DNA of 64,000 bases, taken from Candidatus Heimdallarchaeota archaeon (GTDB taxonomy: Archaea; Asgardarchaeota; Heimdallarchaeia; Hodarchaeales; Hodarchaeaceae). The stretch is taken from NCBI GenBank assembly GCA_011364965.1, contig RDOB01000001.1:32001-96000 (forward strand). Direction: 5' to 3'. Both the position numbers and the translations under genes were made by a program. The notes under the pieces are model-generated. The model was given only the letters and a program-made list of their open reading frames with translations. It ran no database searches and was not told the DNA's origin. Numbering within the stretch: position 1 is the first letter of the stretch; each line of letters opens with the position of its first letter. This document shows positions 2,906-18,283 of the stretch, one piece after another.

Positions 2906-3457
2906 ATGCCAACTAAACTATTTGGTCGAGAGATCGAGAATCAACTTGCTTTCGTTGGCCTTGCGAATGCAGGTAAAACTACACTAGTTAAAAGATTAAA
3001 AGGTGATGACAATCTCGAAACTGTTCCCACCATGGGTATGAATATCGAGACGTTAAAAATTGGGGAGATTGAAGTAATGGCTGTTGATTTAGGCGGTCAA
3101 GTTACATTTCCCTCAAGTCTCTGGGAGCCATTTGTTTCACAAGCTTCTGGAATAGTATTTGTTTTTGATTCAGCAGACAAACTTAAGGTCGAGGAAGCGG
3201 GTAAGTGGCTAAAAAAGGTAATTAAGTGGGCACCTGAAGATTCAGCTTTTCTTTTTCTTGCGAATAAACAAGATTTAGATGAAGCAATGAAAACAGAGGC
3301 AATAATACATACATTGGAACTAGAAAAAGAGATGTCAGAACGGCCTAGAACTTTTGGGGTTTATCCCTGTTCAGCTCTTTTAGGTCAGGGCGTAGACGAA
3401 GCATGGAACTGGATGAGTGAACGAATTCAGAGTACATTTTCACGAAAAAAGATATAG
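2906..3457 (+). CDS. Arf-family small GTPase
   Basis: G1 GLANAGKT, G2 PTMG, G3 DLGGQ, G4 NKQD, G5 CSAL. Confidence 0.93.
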   Translation: MPTKLFGREIENQLAFVGLANAGKTTLVKRLKGDDNLETVPTMGMNIETLKIGEIEVMAVDLGGQVTFPSSLWEPFVSQASGIVFVFDSADKLKVEEAGKWLKKVIKWAPEDSAFLFLANKQDLDEAMKTEAIIHTLELEKEMSERPRTFGVYPCSALLGQGVDEAWNWMSERIQSTFSRKKI

Positions 3458-3466
3458 GTGCTGGCA

Positions 3467-4030
3467 ATGAGTTTCCTTACTAAGTTACGAGCAAAGTTCG
3501 CAAAAGAAAAGCTAACAGTTAAAATTGCATGGTTAGGATTAGATCATGCAGGGAAAACGACGATAGTCAAGAGAATTACCTCAGGGGAATTTGATGATAG
3601 TACATTCAGAACTCTAGGGATGAACGTAGACGAATTCAGCTCAGGGAATGTGCGATTCATTTCTTGGGATATAGGAGGACAAGCAGCATTCAGAGAATCG
3701 CTTTGGGAAAGTTATATGGCAGGATCAATGGGAATAGTATATGTCATAGACTCTGCAGACAAATCAAGGTTCGCAGAGGCCCAAGCGGAGTTATGGAGAT
3801 ATGTACTAGACAATGATAAAGTTCAAAATATTCCCATCCTTGTATTAGCTAATAAACAAGATCTGGAAGATGCAGCCTCAGCTGGAGAGGTAGCAAGGTC
3901 TCTTAATTTGCATAAGGTTACAACCCATTCTTATGCTATTGTTCCTACTTCGGCCAAGACAGGGTTTAATGTTGAAGAAGGATTGGAATGGCTTCGACAA
4001 CGAGTAACAGAAAAACTCGAACTCCTCTAA
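3467..4030 (+). CDS. Arf-family small GTPase with amphipathic N-terminus (ORF open from GTG 3458; ATG 3467 preferred)
   Basis: GLDHAGKT, WDIGGQ, NKQD, TSAK; N-terminal MSFLTKLRAKF helix; directly abuts upstream Arf gene. Confidence 0.93.
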   Translation: MSFLTKLRAKFAKEKLTVKIAWLGLDHAGKTTIVKRITSGEFDDSTFRTLGMNVDEFSSGNVRFISWDIGGQAAFRESLWESYMAGSMGIVYVIDSADKSRFAEAQAELWRYVLDNDKVQNIPILVLANKQDLEDAASAGEVARSLNLHKVTTHSYAIVPTSAKTGFNVEEGLEWLRQRVTEKLELL

Positions 4031-4821
4031 GGTTGTTTTTTCTTCATTACTTTCTTCTCTGAAACGTCATTAATACGCCAACACAGTGCTAAGAAGAGTT
4101 CATACAACTTTTGAAGATCGAGATCTTTTTTGATTCTTGTATATACTCGTATTGATGGATCCTCAGTCGAATCAACGGATATTCTTACTAAAGCGTCCCG
4201 ATTATTATACAAATGTTTCAGTAGAGTCTTATCACCTAATAAATACATACCAGAGCGTTGAGAAGACGCTTTTATGACAAAAAAGTCATCTAACCGCGTA
4301 ACGCCAAGCTTAATATCATCCAATTGAAATAATACATTTTGATGCTTTTTAATTTGGCCTGTTTCATTTTGAGGTATTATCTCCACCTTAGTTGGTACTT
4401 TACCTTTCTTTGGATTAGCCTCCAACGCTATATAGTCATTTGCACCTGAAAACCATGAAATGATCACATTAAGCATGAGATGGCGCTCCTCTAAAGCAAA
4501 AACTACGCGGAAGTCTTTAAAGGGAATATTTTGAGCTTTATTATAAGTAGGGAATAATAATCCCCCATTTGAACTGAATTTTTCTGGTACAAGGTCAGTA
4601 AATTCTTTAGAAAAAACCTCCAAAAGAGATTCACGAGCTACATTCATAATCTTGTGATTTTTTCTTCTACCTGCCCAAAGAAGGTAAAAAGTAAAGAATA
4701 AAACCGTGCCAGGACCCAAAAAAATTATAAAATAGTCAAATAATGAATAAGAAGTGCTCTGTAGAAAAAATATCTTCAGAGAATTTATTATAGTCTGAAA
4801 TAGATAAGTAAAATTGTTCAT
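4027..4821 (-). CDS. DUF1682/CCDC47-like single-pass membrane protein (ORF open from 4887; ATG 4821 preferred)
   Basis: TM helix followed by GRRKNHKIM, and later VFALEERHLMLNVIISWF..ND, matching the remembered CCDC47 pattern (GKNKNSRLA ... LRFLKRQDLLNVLARMM..SD). Confidence 0.7.
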   Translation of the reverse strand: MNNFTYLFQTIINSLKIFFLQSTSYSLFDYFIIFLGPGTVLFFTFYLLWAGRRKNHKIMNVARESLLEVFSKEFTDLVPEKFSSNGGLLFPTYNKAQNIPFKDFRVVFALEERHLMLNVIISWFSGANDYIALEANPKKGKVPTKVEIIPQNETGQIKKHQNVLFQLDDIKLGVTRLDDFFVIKASSQRSGMYLLGDKTLLKHLYNNRDALVRISVDSTEDPSIRVYTRIKKDLDLQKLYELFLALCWRINDVSEKKVMKKKQP

Positions 4822-4852
4822 GGATCTCAAAGAAAAACCAGAAGTAGGAAAT

Positions 4853-5347
4853 TTATTTGTTTCTAGAAATAAAACTACCAATTTCACAATAATTAAATTC
4901 AGTTTTTCCCTGTTTTCCTACAACTTGATAAATTTTAAAAGGCGAGATTTCATCAGAACCTATTTTAATTGGTTCTATGACTAAGGCTACCGAATAATTA
5001 TTGTGTAATTGAAAAGAATAAATGTGGGTCTCAATATCAGTATTTGAAAGAAATAATCCGTATCCTGGATGAGAATGCCACCAACCCACAACATAATCAT
5101 CTTCATGAAGTATTTTCTCAAAAGCTTGAAAATCCTCTTCTGCAAAAGAAACAGAGGCCTCATCTCCCTCGGTGACGAAAACCATTCTTGTTATCACAAG
5201 CTCATCATTCCTCCTCATTTTCCCTCCTAATAATCCAATTGCTTCTCTAGGTATTGATTTCTTTGATATATCTGAAATTTTCTTTAAGGTGGAATATGAT
5301 ATTGTAACAGATTTGACTTGTTGGGTGAGTATAACAGGTTTTGAAAT
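4853..5347 (-). CDS. JAB/MPN+ (Rpn11-like) metalloprotease, putative deconjugase; N-terminus extended beyond ATG 5218, probable ATT start at 5347
   Basis: JAMM motif GWWHSHPGYGLFLSNTD; in-frame upstream VTISYSTLKKI..PREAIGLLGG supplies the conserved catalytic Glu. Confidence 0.88.
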   Translation of the reverse strand: MSKPVILTQQVKSVTISYSTLKKISDISKKSIPREAIGLLGGKMRRNDELVITRMVFVTEGDEASVSFAEEDFQAFEKILHEDDYVVGWWHSHPGYGLFLSNTDIETHIYSFQLHNNYSVALVIEPIKIGSDEISPFKIYQVVGKQGKTEFNYCEIGSFISRNK

Positions 5348-5362
5348 TTGAAGTCCCTCATC

Positions 5363-5905
5363 CTATTGAGCATACTTTTGGGTCCACTCGATAGCATTAT
5401 TCCAATATAGGTCAAATTTTTCTCTCATTTGCTTTCCTGCTTCTGGATTAAATGGATCATTAGGATCAACAAGATATTCAGGAAATTCACCCTCTTGTGT
5501 TACCTGATAAACATCTAACATCATCTCTATATGTTCAAAAACACTAGGAAGGGTTATGGTTTCCTTCCATCCTCCTACTTTTCCGATATTATTCCAATTA
5601 ATTAAACTCAGACAAACGTTGGAGCCCCATTTCCATTGAGTTCTCCCGATGGCGATATTCGGATGCCAAATTTGAGTTATGAAGTTTACAATCGGAGGTC
5701 TAAAGGGATATTCTGGGGGTAATTCAACTTTTATTTCCCATTTTCCATTTTCATAAGGAGTCCCAACTTTTCCTTTAATTATTGCTTTATAATGATGGAG
5801 ATTATTGTTGATTATCTGCCATTTGATAGTACTAGTCTTAGGGGGATAAGTTTTCAGCATTCGTTTGAATTCTTCTCTTAATCGGCGAGAATGGAGATCC
5901 TGCAA
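5363..5905 (-). CDS. Ubiquitin-conjugating enzyme E2
   Basis: RRLREEF, GTPYENG, YPFRPP, WHPNI and catalytic Cys in NVCLSLI, PFNPEA. Confidence 0.95.
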   Translation of the reverse strand: MQDLHSRRLREEFKRMLKTYPPKTSTIKWQIINNNLHHYKAIIKGKVGTPYENGKWEIKVELPPEYPFRPPIVNFITQIWHPNIAIGRTQWKWGSNVCLSLINWNNIGKVGGWKETITLPSVFEHIEMMLDVYQVTQEGEFPEYLVDPNDPFNPEAGKQMREKFDLYWNNAIEWTQKYAQ

Positions 5906-6139
5906 AATGTTTCAGTCCTCTTGTGATTTATTTTTAACATAATGGGTTGTTCTATTATCAGGGTGTCACTTATTAAGCAGCCGAGAAAACCTCAACTTAA
6001 TTCATCTGATAATAATTCACAGCTATAATTATTTTTAAAGCTGGCCTTTGTATGGACAATTTTTATGGCCTTATAAGCTATCTTTTTAAGCTCTGTAATC
6101 ACAATCAGAGTAACTAATCCATCCTATTTGAGTGGGTGA

Positions 6140-6940
6140 TTGTCTATCATGTCCGACAGTGATCTTAGGAGCGCTTCATGTACAGGATGTGGCGCTCCTC
6201 TTTCTACTAAGCCTTCATACAAGCTTCCTGTGAAGTGTGAATACTGTGATCTTACAAATTATCTAAAGAAAACAGTAGTAACACCCGAAGAAGCAAGAAT
6301 TCACGATGCAGAAGAAGAAGCAGAAACCTATTATCTAATTTATAAGGAAACACAAAAAATTCTTGAGAACTTTCATGGAGAAATGGTCGGAGATGAAGTA
6401 GGTAAAGTAAGAATAAAGATGCAAATCAATAGGTATGCCTTTCCCCTCTTAATTGTCTTAGATGATTTACCAGGTCGACCCTATGTGGATGGCCCTGGTA
6501 AATTGCGAGAAATCCTACAATGTGACCTTGGTGAACTTAACTCAATGAAAAACTGGATTCCAGGGACTAGCTCTATCATGGATGTCCTTGAAGAGTTATA
6601 CGAGCGAGTAAGTGCAGTTTTACCTACAGATATTGAAGAAAGCCCTCAAAGATCAAAAGAAAGTGAAGTATTAACAAAAGAAAAGGATGATTTAATCAAA
6701 CAAATTCTCACTAATTATGATACTCTAGCAACTAAAAAACAGGTAATTGTCCGATTCTATTCTCAGGATGGAGAAATAATACCATTTGTTATTAAACGCA
6801 AAAAAAATTATCCAATAGGTATAGAAGAACAGTACCTTGTAAAATTTCCTTTAATTCGAGGCCTTTTGGAAGATTATGCTAAGGGTAGAATTGATCTTCT
6901 TACTACATTAGCTGAAATTGAGAAAATGTTATATATTTAA
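6140..6940 (+). CDS. Zn-ribbon plus UEV/RWD-like (inactive E2-fold) protein
   Basis: CTGCGAPL..VKCEYC zinc ribbon; LPGRPYV...LNSMKNWIPGTSSIMDVLEEL resembles UEV C-terminal signature; sits in the Ubl operon. Confidence 0.55.
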   Translation: MSIMSDSDLRSASCTGCGAPLSTKPSYKLPVKCEYCDLTNYLKKTVVTPEEARIHDAEEEAETYYLIYKETQKILENFHGEMVGDEVGKVRIKMQINRYAFPLLIVLDDLPGRPYVDGPGKLREILQCDLGELNSMKNWIPGTSSIMDVLEELYERVSAVLPTDIEESPQRSKESEVLTKEKDDLIKQILTNYDTLATKKQVIVRFYSQDGEIIPFVIKRKKNYPIGIEEQYLVKFPLIRGLLEDYAKGRIDLLTTLAEIEKMLYI

Positions 6941-6964
6941 AACATCAATAAGGAATGACTAAAA

Positions 6965-7288
6965 ATGGCAAAAAGAGACGTTATCTGGGATTCTGAATCT
7001 CGATCAAAAACCAGTCCAGATTCTGGCATTGAAAAGATGATGAAAATCCGTTTTAAAGACCCACAACTCCCACCGGAACAAAATTTACGGGAGAAGTATA
7101 TCAATATTAATGGAACTGTTTTTCAAGCGATCACTGCTGCAAGAGATGCATTCAATATCCCTGAAGTAGTTCCCATTGCATTACTGTTTAAAGGTAGAAG
7201 GATGAATCCTTCCAATAGCCTTTCTTCTTATGGAATTGAGGAAAATGCAATTTTAATGATAGTTCCAGATCAGATCAAAGGTGGTTAA
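6965..7288 (+). CDS. Ubiquitin-like modifier with C-terminal GG and UFM1-like motifs
   Basis: Beta-grasp pattern LLFKGRRM..SLSSYGIEENAIL; terminal KGG-stop; directly upstream of E1. Confidence 0.9.
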   Translation: MAKRDVIWDSESRSKTSPDSGIEKMMKIRFKDPQLPPEQNLREKYININGTVFQAITAARDAFNIPEVVPIALLFKGRRMNPSNSLSSYGIEENAILMIVPDQIKGG

Positions 7289-7314
7289 CACAAAATCGTT
7301 AGAAGGAAAATCTA

Positions 7315-8565
7315 ATGGATTCGGATATTCCTTCTTCAAGATTTGATAGACAGGAGCGCCTATCACTCTGGGATCAAAAATTAATTGAAAAAATAACGGT
7401 TTTAGTCGTTGGTGTTGGAGGTACAGGGAGTGAAGTATGTAAGAATTTATCTTTACTAGGGATTGGTAAATTGATTCTTGTAGATGTTGATTCTATAGAA
7501 TATTCCAATTTAAATCGCCAAATGCTTTTTAGCAAAGAAGATATCGGACAAAATAAAGCTGAAGTAGCTAAAGTAAGGATACTCCATCACTTTAATCCTG
7601 AATTAGAGGTAGAAGTATTTCCTTTTTATGTCCAAGAAATACCTGATAAAACTTTTGAATCGGTGGATGTCATTGCAGGATGCGTAGATAACTATTTAGC
7701 TAGACAATTTCTGAATTCAATAGCTATTGAACATCGAATTCCTTTAATAGATTCAGCAACTGATGGCTATTTAGGCCAAGTACAATCTATTATACCATTT
7801 CAAACTGCTTGCTTAGCATGTGATAATCCTCCTCCACCACAAGAAACTCAAGTTTTAATGGAACCATGTTCAATAGTGGGCGTTCCAAGATCCCGTGAAC
7901 ATTGTGCTTGGAAAGCTCTTTACGAATTTAATACATTATTCAATCGGAAACCAAATGAGACTGAAAAAGATCTGGAAAAATTAACTCAATTGGCCAACGA
8001 ATACACAGAAAGGTATAATTTTGGAAAATTTGAGAGAAAAGAATTATTGCAATTGATTATGTTTCATGTGCCAAGCCTTATCACGGTGAACGCTGTAACC
8101 AGTGGAATTCAAACTCAAGAGATTATAAAAACGATTTTTTCGATTAAACGGAGGGAGCTAAGAAAATCAGAAAGGTTAGCCTTGCAGCAATTAGAAACCT
8201 TAACAAGATTCAAAATTCCAAGTTTGTCCATTTATTCAGCATTAACAGGAACTCTAAATACATTTGATCTTGTTCAGGATCCAGAATGTACTGTATGCGG
8301 AAATATGTCCAATTTAACCCAAAAAATTGAAAAAATAAAGATAAATAAGAAAAATTCCTTGAAAACAATAATAAATGGTTTTTCAGAGAAGTTTAATAAG
8401 GAATTTATAGCTTTTAAAGGAAATTCGGTTCTACAAGAGGATAGATCATTAGAATCGTTATTGAGGGATGGAGATCGCATTACACTTAGTTCTAAAGAGG
8501 ATGAGCAAGAATTTAGAGTACGTATAACTTTTACTCCCCCAAGAAAACAAAGAAAGAAAGAATAG
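7315..8565 (+). CDS. Ubiquitin-like-protein activating enzyme E1 (ThiF family, UBA3-like)
   Basis: RFDRQ, GVGGTG, DVDSIEYSNLNRQ, TACLAC, catalytic-Cys region PCSIVGVPRSREHC, CTVC zinc knuckle, C-terminal extra domain. Confidence 0.93.
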   Translation: MDSDIPSSRFDRQERLSLWDQKLIEKITVLVVGVGGTGSEVCKNLSLLGIGKLILVDVDSIEYSNLNRQMLFSKEDIGQNKAEVAKVRILHHFNPELEVEVFPFYVQEIPDKTFESVDVIAGCVDNYLARQFLNSIAIEHRIPLIDSATDGYLGQVQSIIPFQTACLACDNPPPPQETQVLMEPCSIVGVPRSREHCAWKALYEFNTLFNRKPNETEKDLEKLTQLANEYTERYNFGKFERKELLQLIMFHVPSLITVNAVTSGIQTQEIIKTIFSIKRRELRKSERLALQQLETLTRFKIPSLSIYSALTGTLNTFDLVQDPECTVCGNMSNLTQKIEKIKINKKNSLKTIINGFSEKFNKEFIAFKGNSVLQEDRSLESLLRDGDRITLSSKEDEQEFRVRITFTPPRKQRKKE

Positions 8566-8579
8566 GAAAAATCTAAAAG

Positions 8580-8906
8580 TTATCTTTTATAAAATACTTT
8601 GATTCGATTTCTTTTGATCGGTAATATCACAGGGATATCAGGATTCAAATATGGTTCCTTATATCCTCCATCTACTTCCTTCTCGGCCGTCAATTGTTCA
8701 TACAATTGCTTCATAACTTGGTCTCTTGACATGGAAGGTAAAATAGATTTCTTGGGATATCTTGAACCTTTCTGAGCGTAATTCCTCTCAATTTTTACAT
8801 TTCTGCGACCACATTTTGGGCAATACCAAACCCCTGATTTAGGAACTTGACGAGGATTATATCCGCAATTACTACATTTGAGATCTGGATTGGACATTAA
8901 TATCAT
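8580..8906 (-). CDS. Small zinc-ribbon protein, unknown function
   Basis: CSNCG...WYCPKCG. Confidence 0.6.
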   Translation of the reverse strand: MILMSNPDLKCSNCGYNPRQVPKSGVWYCPKCGRRNVKIERNYAQKGSRYPKKSILPSMSRDQVMKQLYEQLTAEKEVDGGYKEPYLNPDIPVILPIKRNRIKVFYKR

Positions 8907-9079
8907 AATCCATTATTGGTTTAAAATTCAGTTTATTCTTTGAGCTTTCAATATAATATTAACTTATAGATAGCTCCATTTAAAATTCTACTAATTATAT
9001 TGATAAATCACTCATTATTGCCAATCTCAGTTTAAATTAGACTTAAGAAAATCTAATCTTACTTGTAAAAGGGACTGCA

Positions 9080-10828
9080 ATGCTTAAGCGGAAATTGAAA
9101 TCATGGTTGAAACTGGCTTCTGCTTCAAATGAACCTCTTACACTCCATGATTTCTCTGAAGCTAATATTGAAATTCTTGCAGATTTTTTAAGACATAAGA
9201 TTGGATCTAAGGAACTTAATGGAATTGTTACTCCTGATAATTCGTTTTATATACCAATGAAATATATAGACGCATTAATAACGAGTAGTTTAGAATCTAA
9301 TGGTACTATAGACATTTGTGATTTAATAGATGCTACCAATTTACCAGGAGAAATTTTAGAAAGCGTTATTCGTAGAAAAGTAAGCCAAATAGATGGATTC
9401 TTTGATGTAATAAATAGAAAATTCTTCACTAAAAAAGGCGCAAGACTAGAATTACTCAAATTGATCGGTAGTACTCTTTCTTTGGATTTAAATTATCTAT
9501 TGAATAGCCTTTATTGGACACAAGATTATCTTGAAGCAGTTTTAAATATGCTAACACAAAATGGCGAGTTTATAGGTTATATTGATCCTTTAAAACAGCG
9601 ATTATACAATTTCACGATTCTCAATTTCAGTTTAAATCAAGATTTTGATAGAAATCTCGAATCGATGAGAAAATTCATACAAACAAATTTTGATCTAAAT
9701 TCAGAGGTATCATTAAAAGATTTAGCAGGATTAACACGATTATCTGAAACTGAAATCAGAGATCTATTGAGAAAACATTGCAAAAATATCACTTTTTTGT
9801 TTTCCTCTGATTTCAAAAATATCTATAACGTATTAGAAATCTTTGGGTATGTATTAAGAGACATTCATGTTTATAATGAAATTCCTATTGAATTTTGGTT
9901 ACAAAGATTAGACATTGATAAAAACGATTTTATGACTTTCCTAAGGGTAATAAATCAGAGTTTGGGAGCTGAGCTTTCAGAAAAGGAATTAAAATCGAAC
10001 CCAATTGAAAATTGGTTCAATCAGGGTATAGATATCGAAGAATTAGCCCTGAAGCTACATTTGGAACCTTTACAACTGCTAACGGAGATCAAAAAATTCT
10101 CAGATCAACTAGGGTTGATTTTAATAACAGGGGAATTTAGAGATCCTTTTTTAATTAAAGGTATAGAGGAATTTGAGATTTTTTGCCAAGTTGATACATC
10201 TATTCATCACAATCCTCAATTATATTTTGAATGTCAAAATTGTCGACGAATAATGTGCTCAAATTGCCGTTCTTCAGGAAGCACACATGTCTGTCCGTTC
10301 TGTGGGAATATTTCAGCATTTATTATCGATCTTCCAAGGCATTGCCAAACCTGTGAGTTGAACTACACCCATTCATTTAATTTAGAGAGTACCGAAGAAT
10401 GTTATTTTTGTAAAAAAGGTCCCTTAAAATCTGGATGGATTGAAAAAAAGGAAATTTTGTACCCTGAAACAGAATTGGACCGAAAATTACTTGAATGGTT
10501 AAACACCGTAAGAAATGAAAGAATTCCTCTTCGTGAAATAATTTCGAACCTTGGAGCTCCTGATCGTGTAGTTATTGAACTACTAGAAACCCATATACTC
10601 TCTAGCAAGGTTAGTGGAAAGATTGATATTAAAGATCTAACTCTTAATAGGAAGGGAGAAAAAAAAGGTGTTTTATGTAGTATATGTGAAACTATACAAC
10701 CAGAGGGAAATGAGTATTATTGTAATTTCTGTAAAACCACTATTTGCATAAATTGCTACAATAAGATGAAATCCGTTGGAATGATTTCGTGCACGGAGTG
10801 TGGAAGCGAGTTGGTGAAATTTAACTAA
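9080..10828 (+). CDS. Winged-helix-repeat (UFL1/DDRGK1/PCI-like) protein with two RING-like zinc fingers; candidate E3 ligase
   Basis: Repeated WH units (LESNGTIDICDL..NLPGEILE; LEAVLNMLTQNGEFIGYID; SSKVSGKID); Cys clusters CQVD..CQNC..CSNC..CPFC, CQTC..CYFC and CSIC..CNFC..CINC..CTEC. Confidence 0.65.
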   Translation: MLKRKLKSWLKLASASNEPLTLHDFSEANIEILADFLRHKIGSKELNGIVTPDNSFYIPMKYIDALITSSLESNGTIDICDLIDATNLPGEILESVIRRKVSQIDGFFDVINRKFFTKKGARLELLKLIGSTLSLDLNYLLNSLYWTQDYLEAVLNMLTQNGEFIGYIDPLKQRLYNFTILNFSLNQDFDRNLESMRKFIQTNFDLNSEVSLKDLAGLTRLSETEIRDLLRKHCKNITFLFSSDFKNIYNVLEIFGYVLRDIHVYNEIPIEFWLQRLDIDKNDFMTFLRVINQSLGAELSEKELKSNPIENWFNQGIDIEELALKLHLEPLQLLTEIKKFSDQLGLILITGEFRDPFLIKGIEEFEIFCQVDTSIHHNPQLYFECQNCRRIMCSNCRSSGSTHVCPFCGNISAFIIDLPRHCQTCELNYTHSFNLESTEECYFCKKGPLKSGWIEKKEILYPETELDRKLLEWLNTVRNERIPLREIISNLGAPDRVVIELLETHILSSKVSGKIDIKDLTLNRKGEKKGVLCSICETIQPEGNEYYCNFCKTTICINCYNKMKSVGMISCTECGSELVKFN

Positions 10829-10832
10829 AATA

Positions 10833-11735
10833 TTACTCAGAGGTTTTAGATTTATATTGGGCAAGCTTTTGGGCATATTTATCCGATAATTCCTTATAAC
10901 TTTCTTCAGATAATTTCCCACTTAGAAACATCTCATCAGCTTGCTCCAACATATGTTCGTACTTAGAAATTTTAGCTGAAACGTCATCGAATGATTTTCG
11001 CTCCTCATCAAGTTCTCTTTGAGTTTCTAATACTTGTTTTTCAACCTCATATGCTAGTAGTGTTTGATATTCTTCAGGGACTTTAAAACCTCCAATTTCA
11101 AGACCCACTAATTCTAATCCCCAGCGAGATGTTTCTGGTGCCAGTTCGGATCTGGTCTGTATTGTTAAACTCCTTCTCTCCCTCAAAAGATCGGAAACGG
11201 TATAACGCGACATAATGTGTTTCACAGCTGCAATAATCGTTTGCTTTATCCAATTTCTTAACTCCTCACTTGTATAGTAGTGCTTATGTGAGACAACATT
11301 CATAATAAAGTTCCTTGGATTAACAACTCGTAATCTGGATATTCCATAGCATCCAATCATTATATTATCAATTGTATATACCCCAGGTGAACCCCACTTA
11401 ACTAGAAACTCTCCCTTGGTAATCCAAATGATTTCACCTCCAGGCCGTTTAGCTGTTTTGTCTAATTCATAAATTCCACTCCCAGCAACACCAACTAAGG
11501 CTCCTGATTGCAATAGGACAGCAGCTTCAAGCTCTTTAACGATAAATCCATCAAATTTTCGAAAACTATCGTACTCATCAGATTTTAATCTTGAAATAAG
11601 CGATTCTTGTCCGAATTCAGAGGAGAGAATAGTTTTTCCTTTAAACTTTTTCGTCCCGATATGCACTGTATCTCCAATTCGTTTGAATAAACCCCCAAAT
11701 TTTTCTGTTTCCGCCATTTGAGTTCCACCTACCAA
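10833..11735 (-). CDS. SPFH/band-7 domain protein with C-terminal coiled coil and SHOCT-like helix
   Basis: IVKELEAAVLLQSG..GIY, VKWG, WGLELVGLEIGGFKVPEE, GKLSEESY. Confidence 0.8.
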   Translation of the reverse strand: MVGGTQMAETEKFGGLFKRIGDTVHIGTKKFKGKTILSSEFGQESLISRLKSDEYDSFRKFDGFIVKELEAAVLLQSGALVGVAGSGIYELDKTAKRPGGEIIWITKGEFLVKWGSPGVYTIDNIMIGCYGISRLRVVNPRNFIMNVVSHKHYYTSEELRNWIKQTIIAAVKHIMSRYTVSDLLRERRSLTIQTRSELAPETSRWGLELVGLEIGGFKVPEEYQTLLAYEVEKQVLETQRELDEERKSFDDVSAKISKYEHMLEQADEMFLSGKLSEESYKELSDKYAQKLAQYKSKTSE

Positions 11736-12715
11736 TTATCGTCTCCATATATTCCTGGAAAGTAATACTGATCCCCTGTATCTAATGAGCTCACCTTTCG
11801 TGCGATTTTTTGATTTATCAAACTCTCCAACACTCTTGTTACTCTTTGGTGATCCCATTTTGTTTTGATCATGATTTCTTCAATTGTGACATAACCCTTG
11901 TTTACAGCTAAATTGAAGATCTTACTTGCATCATTAGTCAAAGAAACTGGTGTAAATTCTATTATTTTAACACCAGAACGCTTTGATATATCTTCAATTA
12001 GACCATCATCCTTTAAATTCTTACAAGATTTTTCTAAATCTTTAATTGAGAATTCCACATCTGGAACTTGGCTTTTCAACTTGGTGTATAAATTTGCAAG
12101 GGTAATATACCCACCTGAACTAGCTGGAAGTTTTTTACCCTGTTCGAGTATTAAATCCCCAAGAAATTCCTCGAATTTCCCTTTTCCAAATAATTTGGGC
12201 TTTTTACTTGCATCAAGCGCAGTTACAGTTAAAGAAAGTCCTTCTTTGCGAATTAACTCTTCCTCTAACTGCTTTATCCGCTTCTCATATTTTTTCTGTA
12301 AATCTTTAATGTTTTTTGTTGAAACTGAGGCACCATTGGCCAGTTTTTGCTGAACTTGAATGATTTCATCAAGCTGTTGGATTTGTTCATTAAGTTCCCG
12401 GAGTTCCCCCCGAACATCCAAATTTTCTTCTCCAAAATCAATAGATTCTGATAACTGAATACACTGGTCTGCTATTCTATCACAGATGATTGATGATAGT
12501 AATTGAGCAACACGGATTTCACCACTCATTTTTAAATTAGATTTGGTATTATCTGGATGAATAATATAATCAGGAATGGATTCACTTGCGTAACGGATCT
12601 CATCAAATTTTGATATAATCTTTAAGATTAGATCAGATGCACTCCTAGCATTAGAAGAAATACTGCTATTTAATGTTATTAATGAGTCACTAGCCTTAAG
12701 AAAGAATTCTTTCAT
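11729..12715 (-). CDS. ESCRT-II Vps22/Vps36 (EAP30)-like tandem winged-helix protein with N-terminal coiled coil
   Basis: GGYITLANL, TPVSLTNDASKIFNLA..KGYVT, KWDHQRVTRVLESL, QYYFPG match the Vps22/SNF8 C-terminal consensus. Confidence 0.85.
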   Translation of the reverse strand: MKEFFLKASDSLITLNSSISSNARSASDLILKIISKFDEIRYASESIPDYIIHPDNTKSNLKMSGEIRVAQLLSSIICDRIADQCIQLSESIDFGEENLDVRGELRELNEQIQQLDEIIQVQQKLANGASVSTKNIKDLQKKYEKRIKQLEEELIRKEGLSLTVTALDASKKPKLFGKGKFEEFLGDLILEQGKKLPASSGGYITLANLYTKLKSQVPDVEFSIKDLEKSCKNLKDDGLIEDISKRSGVKIIEFTPVSLTNDASKIFNLAVNKGYVTIEEIMIKTKWDHQRVTRVLESLINQKIARKVSSLDTGDQYYFPGIYGDDNW

Positions 12716-17162: not shown

Positions 17163-17657
17163 TTGATTGATCCCAGAAGATTTGACACAGTTCTTAGTAA
17201 AATCATCAAGAGCGAGCCTGGTATAAAAAAAGTGATATTAGTTGATCGTACAGGCCTAACTATAGCTCATGTCTCAAAATTTAGTTACGTTTCAGTTGAT
17301 GTCGACGGAATTGGTGCAATTGCATCTGCTGTATTCATGGCTTCCGCAGAACAAGGCAATAATCTGACTATTGGAGGTCTTGACATAGTTACCTCTGAAT
17401 TTGATACAGGTAAGATTTTTGCGAGTGCTTGTGGAAGGGGAATTCTAACTATCATTTCCGACGCAGAAGTAAATATTGGAATGATTCGCTTATTGATGAG
17501 AAAAGCGAATGAAGAACTCAGCAGCATTTTAGACGAGTTTCTTGCAGGACAGCCGACACGAACGATAGTGGGACCTTCCTCTAGTTCTCCTGAAGTTAGA
17601 TCAAGCTTGGAAAAAGATGAATTAGAAGCAGCACTACGTGAACTTGAAAAATTCTAG
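17163..17657 (+). CDS. Roadblock/LC7 domain protein (MglB-like)
   Basis: LVDRTGLTIA..IGAIASA..VNIGMIRL; directly upstream of MglA-like GTPase. Confidence 0.88.
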   Translation: MIDPRRFDTVLSKIIKSEPGIKKVILVDRTGLTIAHVSKFSYVSVDVDGIGAIASAVFMASAEQGNNLTIGGLDIVTSEFDTGKIFASACGRGILTIISDAEVNIGMIRLLMRKANEELSSILDEFLAGQPTRTIVGPSSSSPEVRSSLEKDELEAALRELEKF

Positions 17658-17701
17658 CATTTCCTGTTATTTTATTTCCATTACAAAAGGAGCTTCCCCA
17701 T

Positions 17702-18283
17702 TTGCGAAAGGATGCTGAAGGTCGCCATAGATTCAAGATTGCTTTTTATGGCCCCTCCTTATCGGGTAAAACATCTACACTTGCTTGGTTATATAATAAA
17801 GTTGATGGACTGGAGAAAGGAAAATTTACACAGCTAGCTGATCCAACAGGAAGGACTCTATTTTTCGATTTTGTACCAATGCAGGCAACAACAGGAGTGG
17901 TTTTCGATGTTTATACTACAGCGGGACAGGAGAGACATAAACATCAGCGAAAAATCGTAATTCAAGGGGTTGATGGAATCATTTTCGTTGTAGATTCTAG
18001 TGCCTCTCAAATGGAAGAGAATCTAGAATCATTAGAGGAACTACGATCTCATCTTGGAGATCAATTAGGTAATTCGATTCCTATGGTTATTACGTTAAAT
18101 AAAAGAGACGTTCCAGACGCTTTATCAAGATCTGAGTTAATAGAAAAGTTGAATATTCACAATTACCCGATTTACGAAACAGTTGCTACAACAGGGATTG
18201 GAGTGAAAAGAGCGTTTCAATCCCTAGCAAGAGAAATATTAATGATCCAACTATATGGGACTAAAGAGGCTCAAATTAAGTAA
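17702..18283 (+). CDS. MglA-family small GTPase
   Basis: KIAFYGPSLSGKT, RTLFFDF (intrinsic Arg finger), YTTAGQ, NKRD, TVAT. Confidence 0.9.
   Translation: MRKDAEGRHRFKIAFYGPSLSGKTSTLAWLYNKVDGLEKGKFTQLADPTGRTLFFDFVPMQATTGVVFDVYTTAGQERHKHQRKIVIQGVDGIIFVVDSSASQMEENLESLEELRSHLGDQLGNSIPMVITLNKRDVPDALSRSELIEKLNIHNYPIYETVATTGIGVKRAFQSLAREILMIQLYGTKEAQIK

Follow-up and report, generated by a model that had tools for sequence, protein, structure and literature searches.

Introduction

UFL1 is an unusual E3 ligase of obscure origin, without a catalytic domain of known type. CCDC47 belongs to the PAT complex and the multipass translocon of eukaryotes. Homology to both proteins is considered here for a gene cluster at positions 2906-12715 of a 64,000-nucleotide stretch of archaeal DNA, termed the window (G000:C13:32001-96000), from a metagenome-assembled genome (MAG) of Candidatus (Ca.) Hodarchaeum (Hodarchaeales, Heimdallarchaeia; 2.97 Mb, 87% complete). 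The genus also takes in B3_Heim and Ca. Hodarchaeum mangrovi, and current views place the Hodarchaeales nearest to eukaryotes among the archaea. The cluster encodes a candidate E3 with winged-helix (WH) and RING-like domains, termed the WH/RING protein, together with a ubiquitin-like modifier (Ubl), an E1, an E2, a JAB protease and a putative CCDC47-family membrane protein. It probably represents a distinct conjugation system of the ubiquitin type in Ca. Hodarchaeum, which would be at least the third ubiquitin-type set in the genome.

Archaeal ubiquitin operons, such as the Ub-E1-E2-RING-Rpn11 operon of Caldiarchaeum, and Asgard ubiquitin-ESCRT clusters are known (PMC6043591, PMC9192718). The locus resembles them in having a ubiquitin-fold modifier, a small ThiF E1, a UBC E2, a JAB/Rpn11-like protease and a putative RING-type E3. 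It differs in that the E3 carries a UFL1-type WH array instead of being a small RING protein, in that the Ubl is divergent and narrowly distributed, in that the system is present besides the canonical ubiquitin-ESCRT cluster of the same genome, and in its neighbors, which are a CCDC47 homologue, an SPFH protein and a Vps22 paralogue. UFL1-domain proteins are already known in Asgard archaea (bioRxiv 10.1101/2020.10.19.343400; PMC10183829), to which UFL1 and DDRGK1 have been traced, and Picchianti et al. (PMC10183829) proposed that the two proteins came from these archaea with a function independent of UFM1. Ufm1 homologues have been reported from structural modelling in nine Asgard clades (PMC12962969); like the Ubl of the locus they have a ubiquitin fold, come from Asgard archaea and are tied to the UFM1 pathway by argument, whereas the locus Ubl gives no match to the Ufm1 model and occurs in few genomes.

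The locus makes the idea of an Asgard, UFM1-independent origin of UFL1 concrete and testable by placing a UFL1-type WH scaffold, fused to RING-like fingers, beside a complete ubiquitin-type set of Ubl, E1, E2 and deconjugase. Judged by the searchable literature, the fusion of UFL1-type and RING-like parts beside a full canonical cascade is new, as are the Asgard CCDC47 family and its adjacency to the UFL1/RING ligase; no paper mentioning CCDC47 together with Asgard was found in that literature. If this holds for the CCDC47 family, one component of the PAT complex and multipass translocon of eukaryotes would be of archaeal origin. The proteins are small, soluble or single-pass, so that in vitro reconstitution and ribosome-binding tests are feasible.

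The Candidate E3 and Its Relation to UFL1

The WH/RING gene (9080..10828, + strand) encodes a protein of 582 amino acids that matches the Pfam E3_UFM1_ligase model (PF09743) at 24 bits, the cut-off of the model being 23.2 bits. A profile built from 16 orthologues and searched against all PDB sequences places UFL1 in the top four positions (8b9x, E 5.6e-8; 8c0d, 9e-7; 8qfc, 1.5e-6; 8ohd, 2.5e-6). These are followed by RING domains, with MAT1 at 4.7e-3 and TRIM32, UHRF1, BRE1 and NOT4 between 0.05 and 0.4, and the search lists no PCI protein. The WH domain of DDRGK1 matches residues 461-521 only weakly in the same search (E 0.12-0.5).

The AlphaFold2 model of the protein (predicted local distance difference test score, pLDDT, 87.5; predicted template modelling score, pTM, 0.74) begins with an N-terminal helix leading into about six winged helices that extend to residue 362, giving an array spanning approximately residues 30-362. 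The remainder is composed of a cysteine-rich zinc module (residues 366-460), a further winged helix (465-524) and a RING-like finger (530-582). In a Foldseek search of the PDB with this model, UFL1 occupies places 1-5 with E values of 1.6e-11 to 4.4e-7 over 262-365 aligned columns, followed by SelB at 3.5e-4, and the WH/PCI proteins of ESCRT-II, CSN and the proteasome lid lie at 1e-2 or above. For the WH array UFL1 leads generic WH/PCI folds by 7 orders of magnitude. As UFL1 heads both the profile and the Foldseek search with the generic folds far behind, the similarity is specific to UFL1, and the preference for UFL1 over generic PCI/WH folds that the initial annotation had suggested for its putative E3 is upheld. 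Profile and predicted fold together give firm grounds for regarding the winged-helix array as a true UFL1 homologue.

The homology to UFL1 (which acts with DDRGK1) covers about 360 residues of the N-terminal WH array, in both sequence profile and fold. Substantial differences occur outside this region. UFL1 has 794 amino acids compared with 582 in the archaeal protein, in which no counterpart of the UFL1 C-terminal part is detectable, and the archaeal protein has two cysteine-rich RING-like modules that UFL1 does not possess. The genes around it encode an HPN E2, a canonical E1 and a Ubl ending in GG in place of UFC1, UBA5 and UFM1. UFL1 functions as a RING- and HECT-free scaffold E3 with UFC1 and UFM1; the archaeal protein departs from this description in its RING-like modules, and its 87%-complete genome gives no match to the UFC1 and Ufm1 models. 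In eukaryotes DDRGK1 completes a partial WH domain of UFL1 and provides its membrane anchor; the Pfam DDRGK model has no match in the archaeal genome, where the faint likeness to DDRGK1 lies within the WH/RING protein itself.

Apart from the WH/RING gene, no UFL1-like gene was found in the 87%-complete genome. A 794-amino-acid open reading frame (ORF) on contig C11 with a weak PF09743 match was considered as a second UFL1-like gene and rejected as a HEAT-repeat protein. A word-based homologue search with the WH array, together with a contig scan, returned relatives from the same genus only. In another Asgard family, 17 of 68 genomes contain ORFs of about 790-830 amino acids that match the N-terminal region of the WH/RING profile, approximately positions 6-196 (for example G183:C188:11049-11495 and G057:C272:11007-11447). 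These are probably the previously reported Asgard UFL1 homologues, since their size equals that of eukaryotic UFL1.

The Modifier and Its Conjugation Enzymes

The Ubl gene (6965..7288, + strand) encodes 107 amino acids with a variable N-terminal tail of about 22 residues, a β-grasp core and the C terminus IVPDQIKGG directly followed by the stop codon; this C-terminal sequence is invariant in the family. The protein matches the Pfam models Rad60-SLD (2e-6) and ubiquitin (5e-5). The E1 (7315..8565, + strand; ThiF 8.5e-54) is of the canonical type, with a ThiF adenylation domain, a Cys-containing segment and a C-terminal domain. Its closest PDB matches are UBA1 (7e-35), SAE2 (3e-32) and UBA3 (9e-28), with UBA5 at 1e-18, and the Cys-containing segment, judged by eye, resembles the catalytic-Cys region of UBA3. 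The E2 (5363..5905, - strand; UQ_con 5.1e-24) is also canonical, with an HPN motif and the catalytic Cys in the sequence NVCLSL, both invariant in the family and separated by a 10-residue insert. The JAB/MPN+ isopeptidase (4853..5362, - strand; Pfam JAB 9.4e-8) has an intact HxHx7SxxD motif. All catalytic parts are accordingly present and intact, and the set comprises a GG-ended β-grasp modifier, a UBA1/2/3-type E1, an HPN/Cys E2 and an MPN+ protease, the hallmarks of canonical ubiquitin-type systems.

The coding region of the JAB gene is longer than the ORF called from its ATG (4853-5218). It reaches approximately position 5362, with 48 N-terminal codons (5219-5362) that include the catalytic Glu in REAIGLL. 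These codons follow in frame directly after the TAG stop of the E2 gene and lie upstream of the first ATG, GTG or TTG; an ATG that overlaps the E2 stop (5361-5359) is in a different frame from JAB. In relatives the JAB gene begins with an ordinary ATG and is read in another frame than E2.

Comparison with the UFM1 system was made at the level of both modifier and enzymes. The Pfam ubiquitin and Rad60-SLD models each match 20 of 20 diverse members of the Ubl family, and the Ufm1 model matches none of the 20. With the Ubl family profile UFM1 is not among the best 60 PDB rows, which are ubiquitin-family proteins and variants and one unrelated entry, and the nearest named Atlas clusters are ubiquitin-type. 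UFM1 has a single C-terminal Gly that is exposed by UFSP and is activated by UBA5 and UFC1, whereas the archaeal Ubl ends in GG and a stop codon, and six-frame searches of the 87%-complete genome with the Ufm1, DDRGK, UFC1 and UFSP models gave no match. Judged by sequence comparison, the enzymology and the modifier are both ubiquitin-type. The likeness to UFM1 that had been claimed for the Ubl is thus not borne out, and the statement that E1, E2, RING and JAB are of ubiquitin type, and not UBA5, UFC1 and UFSP, agrees with these results. The label "UFMylation-like" given to the whole locus fits the E3 as a UFL1 homologue and does not fit the modifier and the enzymes.

These data bear directly on the proposal that the locus is a primordial form of UFMylation, with the Ubl being an ancestor or orthologue of UFM1 that, together with the UFL1-like E3 and the CCDC47 homologue, modifies the large ribosomal subunit (uL24) at the SecY translocon as UFM1, UFL1 and DDRGK1 do at the endoplasmic reticulum. 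The E3 is homologous to UFL1, a neighboring gene appears to encode a real CCDC47-family protein, and the two genes are adjacent and co-directional on a divergent metagenomic contig (L035). When the single Ubl sequence is used, UFM1 and ubiquitin tie at approximately 12.7 bits, the UFM1 alignment being longer than that of ubiquitin and covering the whole core (residues 21-103 to 4-87). The reported Asgard origin of UFL1/DDRGK1 (PMC10183829) and the nine clades with Ufm1 homologues (PMC12962969) are also in keeping with the proposal. The family-level results described above nevertheless run counter to it for the modifier, as do the GG terminus, the distance of the E1 from UBA5 and the missing UFC1, UFSP, Ufm1 and DDRGK matches, and the Ubl family is found in just 22 of the 301 Asgard genomes sampled for profile scans compared with the nine-clade spread reported for Ufm1. 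A primordial UFMylation in this strict sense is very unlikely.

The first gene of the X-Ubl-E1 operon (6140..6940, + strand) encodes protein X, a conserved protein of 266 amino acids with an N-terminal zinc ribbon. It has no Pfam match and no PDB sequence match, an hhalign comparison with the local E2 family gives a probability of 0.4%, and an Atlas feature search provided no usable match. The initial annotation had called it UEV-like (ubiquitin E2 variant), a label left unconfirmed by each of the sequence tests.

In a genome from another Asgard class (G102, locus L089 3578-6415), a Ubl-E1-E2-JAB operon is followed by a gene for a 946-amino-acid protein with TRAP_beta (52 bits) and CARDB/DUF11 matches and a C-terminal zinc ribbon. 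The JAB protein of this operon itself carries an N-terminal zinc ribbon.

Other Ubiquitin-type Sets in the Genome

Two other sets are encoded on different contigs of the same genome. The set on C16 (G000:C16:72970-87183; L091, L093, L097 and L100) has a 77-amino-acid ubiquitin ending in RTTGG with an E1 gene directly after it and, within about 14 kb, an E2, a 263-amino-acid protein with a partial UQ_con match, which is possibly a UEV protein, and an EAP30/Vps22 gene that scores better than the one at the studied locus. From its gene content this set looks like the published Asgard ubiquitin-ESCRT cluster. The set on C1 (G000:C1:56904-59423; L094, L095 and L098) has two Ubls ending in STAG(Y), a 416-amino-acid E1 and an E2. 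With the canonical C16 set and the C1 set located elsewhere, the locus described here is taken to be a separate, specialized pathway rather than the principal ubiquitin system of the organism.

The CCDC47-like Membrane Protein

The gene for the CCDC47-like protein (4027..4821, - strand) lies in an ORF that remains open up to 4887, the coordinate used in an earlier call (4027-4887). The start is most likely the ATG at 4821, giving a protein of 264 amino acids, and relatives have 251-270. An N-terminal transmembrane helix is followed by a GRRKN motif and a cytosolic α/β domain, and the chain ends with a short helix and a basic KKVMKKKQP tail, leaving almost no extracytoplasmic part. Eukaryotic CCDC47 (PF07946) appears to share the order of transmembrane helix, juxtamembrane G(K/R)xKN motif and cytosolic α/β domain; the archaeal protein differs in its shorter length and in having neither the luminal acidic N-terminal domain nor the long C-terminal coiled coil or latch helices.

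The assignment is carried by the family. The window protein alone scores 13.4 bits with PF07946, below the cut-off of 27.7 bits. PF07946 is matched by 21 of 33 close relatives (best 8.8e-6) and by 8 of 24 diverse relatives (best 7.1e-7), with collinear alignments that span as many as 240 positions of the model. When the diverse family is searched as a profile, members turn up in 104 of 301 sampled Asgard genomes, spread over nearly all Heimdallarchaeia families, and a six-frame scan with PF07946 itself gives matches at E ≤ 1e-3 in 26 of the 301, above the cut-off in 13 and in none of the 14 controls. Every PF07946 locus above the threshold had already been retrieved by the family profile, the top score being 36.8 bits. 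Members of family f3, from other Heimdallarchaeia, align to positions 8-320 of the 326 in the model and have a long K/E/R-rich C-terminal coiled coil, as in CCDC47. The CCDC47-like call therefore holds at the family level; for the window protein, which alone stays below the cut-off, membership is transitive because family members at the same loci pass the PF07946 threshold, and on this basis the window protein very probably belongs to the CCDC47 family.

In structural comparison, chains of the rabbit and Chaetomium translocons that were inferred to be CCDC47 come out best, and a Foldseek search of the PDB with the model (pLDDT 63) gives nothing at E ≤ 0.001. Family profiles A1 and A3 retrieve no CCDC47 from the PDB sequences, just spurious designed repeats. 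Among 1.8 billion representatives, searched exhaustively with a profile, there were 26 relatives of 58-281 amino acids, the full-length ones having approximately 200-280 and none reaching the length of eukaryotic CCDC47. An ESM Atlas shape search with the model gave weak bacterial rows alone, DUF3137 among them, and the distant family members P0119 and P0121 match bacterial DUF3137 (PF11335) at 31.7 bits, above the cut-off. These matches suggest kinship between DUF3137 and the globular domain of CCDC47, and the latter may belong to a wider superfamily. Eukaryotic CCDC47 associates with the ribosome at its exit site, with Sec61 and with Asterix; Asterix (PF03669) has no match above noise in the window genome.

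A paralogue with 27% identity is encoded elsewhere in the window genome (G000:C9:623701-624426; L069 9687-10481), and a divergent second copy is found in many genomes of the genus; that of the window genome has no ubiquitin-related neighbors. At three further loci, from another Heimdallarchaeia family (L073 9398-10964, L074 9441-11027 and L075 9136-10703), a CCDC47 homologue of about 300-315 amino acids lies directly after an Arf-like GTPase gene on the same strand, and the two translated homologues, L073 and L074, have a long K/E/R-rich coiled-coil end. In L036 (3-6323, genome G023) and the matching metagenome contig L070 (14-6277), the homologue is found among an M48 peptidase of the HtpX/Ste24 type, an M50-like protein, a transmembrane protein with a zf-AN1 finger, a weak HBS1_N match and a TFIIS/RPB9-type zinc ribbon. 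This neighborhood possibly relates to membrane-protein quality control.

Proposed Pathway

The best-supported account of the locus is a specialized ubiquitin-type pathway whose E3 joins RING fingers to a UFL1-type scaffold and acts at the membrane. The enzymatic steps are inferred from what is known of the protein families, as are the role of the E3 and the membrane location. The E1 would adenylate the ready-made GG end of the divergent Ubl and transfer the Ubl to its own catalytic Cys, from which it would pass to the HPN E2. The WH/RING protein, as a dedicated E3, would recruit the charged E2 via its RING-like fingers, with the UFL1-homologous N-terminal WH array positioning it. The MPN+ JAB protease would take the tag off again; where relatives have a Ubl with residues beyond GG, it would in addition process the precursor. 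Membrane-associated genes accompany the E3 gene, namely those for the Vps22 paralogue, the SPFH protein, the zinc ribbon, the CCDC47-family transmembrane protein and the Arf-like GTPases, and the likeliest place for the tagging of proteins is therefore the cytoplasmic side of the membrane.

The ribosome or the SecY translocon as the target is put forward as a hypothesis only. In its fullest form, a RING-bearing UFL1-homologous ligase, an HPN E2, a GG-ended Ubl and a CCDC47 homologue would together tag membrane-bound ribosomes or stalled clients at SecY, and the UFM1 pathway would have arisen from such an older pathway by swapping the modifier, E1 and E2; this scenario is unlikely. The notion of a forerunner of UFMylation gains from the UFL1 and CCDC47 assignments, but it draws on gene neighborhood within a narrow clade, and the modifier contradicts it; as a general idea it ranks between unlikely and very unlikely.

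Several observations weigh against the specialized membrane pathway. The Ubl family and the full-length WH/RING architecture are each confined to Hodarchaeales apart from one stray genome, the CCDC47 family, with its 104 genomes, being spread far more widely than either. The RING assignment comes from weak sequence matches (E 0.005-0.4) and cysteine spacing. The JAB gene of this MAG is without a normal start codon, perhaps because of an assembly error of 1 nt, a genuine frameshift or an atypical start. Gene linkage provides further points of the same kind: the flanking GNAT, eIF2α and GINS genes are as syntenic within the genus as the cluster; X-Ubl-E1, the E3 module and the CCDC47 homologue lie on three separate contigs in a genome of the sister family (G022); and hidden Markov models (HMMs) found neither cascade nor E3-module genes up to 10 kb from CCDC47 homologues in 17 genomes outside the genus, or up to 10 kb from the CCDC47 paralogue of the window genome.

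Gene Order and Linkage

The order Arf1-Arf2-CCDC47L-JAB-E2, X-Ubl-E1, ZnR, WH/RING, SPFH-Vps22, where ZnR is a small zinc-ribbon protein, was compared with 17 other Hodarchaeum loci. It is identical in 15 of the 15 that are fully covered, the remaining 2 running off the end of a contig. Because the housekeeping flanks are equally syntenic, gene order within the genus carries little weight, and more divergent loci were compared. In G022 the Vps22, SPFH, WH/RING and ZnR genes form a tight co-directional run, behind which lie genes for an unrelated GTPase and a Roadblock protein, and the X-Ubl-E1 operon is kept. The position of ZnR is taken there by a 99-amino-acid zinc-ribbon ORF, and a tblastn search with the window ZnR gave no G022 match at 1e-3. 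In G102 the orthologous compact Ubl-E1-E2-JAB operon stands alone. Contig L035, about as divergent from the window as G022 (identities of 37% for WH/RING, 34% for the CCDC47 homologue and 70% for Arf2), has a WH/RING gene ending 15-18 nt upstream of a co-directional CCDC47 homologue, followed by a convergent Arf2. The orders in the genus, G022 and L035 point to a stable core of the E3 with Vps22, SPFH and ZnR. A CCDC47 homologue is found next to the E3 gene in two lineages, the Ubl operon in a single genus. The linkage of the Ubl system to CCDC47 that the initial annotation had emphasized is therefore present in the genus and partly, as the WH/RING adjacency, in L035; it is lost in G022 and unseen in the 17 genomes outside the genus.

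This pattern raises the alternative of chance juxtaposition, in which three independent modules, the Ubl operon with E2 and JAB, the Vps22-SPFH-WH/RING-ZnR group and the CCDC47 homologue with the Arf GTPases, were joined by rearrangement in the Hodarchaeum ancestor without a joint function. The separate contigs of G022 and the equally syntenic housekeeping flanks are what would be expected, as is the lack of cascade or E3-module genes near CCDC47 homologues outside the genus; at five loci (four outside the genus and the window paralogue) Pfam identifies the immediate neighbors as not ubiquitin-related. An Arf-like GTPase adjoins a CCDC47 homologue in one family outside the genus, but adjacency to a GTPase is weak evidence because small GTPases are numerous in Asgard genomes. 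A RING E3, on the other hand, depends on a Ubl and an E2, and the closest genes for them are those next to it. The part of the set that adjoins the WH/RING gene also differs among three divergent lineages, the gene pair in L035 is operon-like, and the canonical ubiquitin-ESCRT genes are kept elsewhere in the genome. Unrelated modules brought together by rearrangement are possible but doubtful as an explanation.

The Vps22/EAP30 paralogue (11729..12715, - strand) matches EAP30 (PF04157) with an E value of 3.1e-11 and 43.8 bits, the cut-off being 26.8 bits, and has an N-terminal coiled-coil extension of about 100 amino acids. The gene overlaps by 7 nt with that of the SPFH/Band-7 protein (10833..11735, - strand; Band_7 7.1e-16). 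These two genes bear on a further alternative, a second sorting system of the ubiquitin-ESCRT type, in which the Ubl marks membrane cargo that the Vps22 paralogue recognizes, SPFH microdomains and Arf GTPases organize the process, and no link to translation exists. Translational coupling links the EAP30 paralogue with SPFH and, in the case of G022, with the E3 gene; this is consistent with such a system, as are the Arf-like GTPases flanking the locus and the established synteny of Asgard ubiquitin and ESCRT genes (PMC9192718). No other ESCRT component was detected at the locus by the HMMs used, among which Vps25, ESCRT-III and Vps4 were not specifically searched; the ORFs examined belong to other families. 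The canonical C16 cluster, in which the higher-scoring Vps22 lies, comes with Ub, E1, E2 and UEV-like genes of its own, and the supposed UEV protein of the locus (protein X) has no sequence similarity to UEV or E2 proteins. A sorting role of this kind is rather unlikely, and the specialized membrane pathway with a UFL1-type E3 is retained as the preferred reading.

Adjacent Genes

All ten ORFs named in the initial annotation are present where it had placed them, and the ORF listing and Pfam bear out nine of its labels. Two Arf-like small GTPase genes (2906-4030) form part of the same conserved block. The first (2906..3457, + strand) matches Pfam Arf at 1.4e-38 and SRPRB at 52 bits and is syntenic across the genus. 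The second (3458..4030, + strand; Pfam Arf 1.4e-47) is convergent with the CCDC47 homologue and corresponds to the 70%-identical orthologue in L035. The ZnR gene (8580..8906, - strand), situated between E1 and WH/RING, encodes a CxxC...CxxC protein whose zinc-ribbon Pfam matches are sub-threshold.

Further along the window, at 17163-18283, a Roadblock/LC7 gene adjoins a Rag/Arf-like GTPase gene. A pair with the same Pfam pattern is located directly after WH/RING and ZnR in G022 (L029 6999-8130), and from this pattern the two pairs are probably the same genes.

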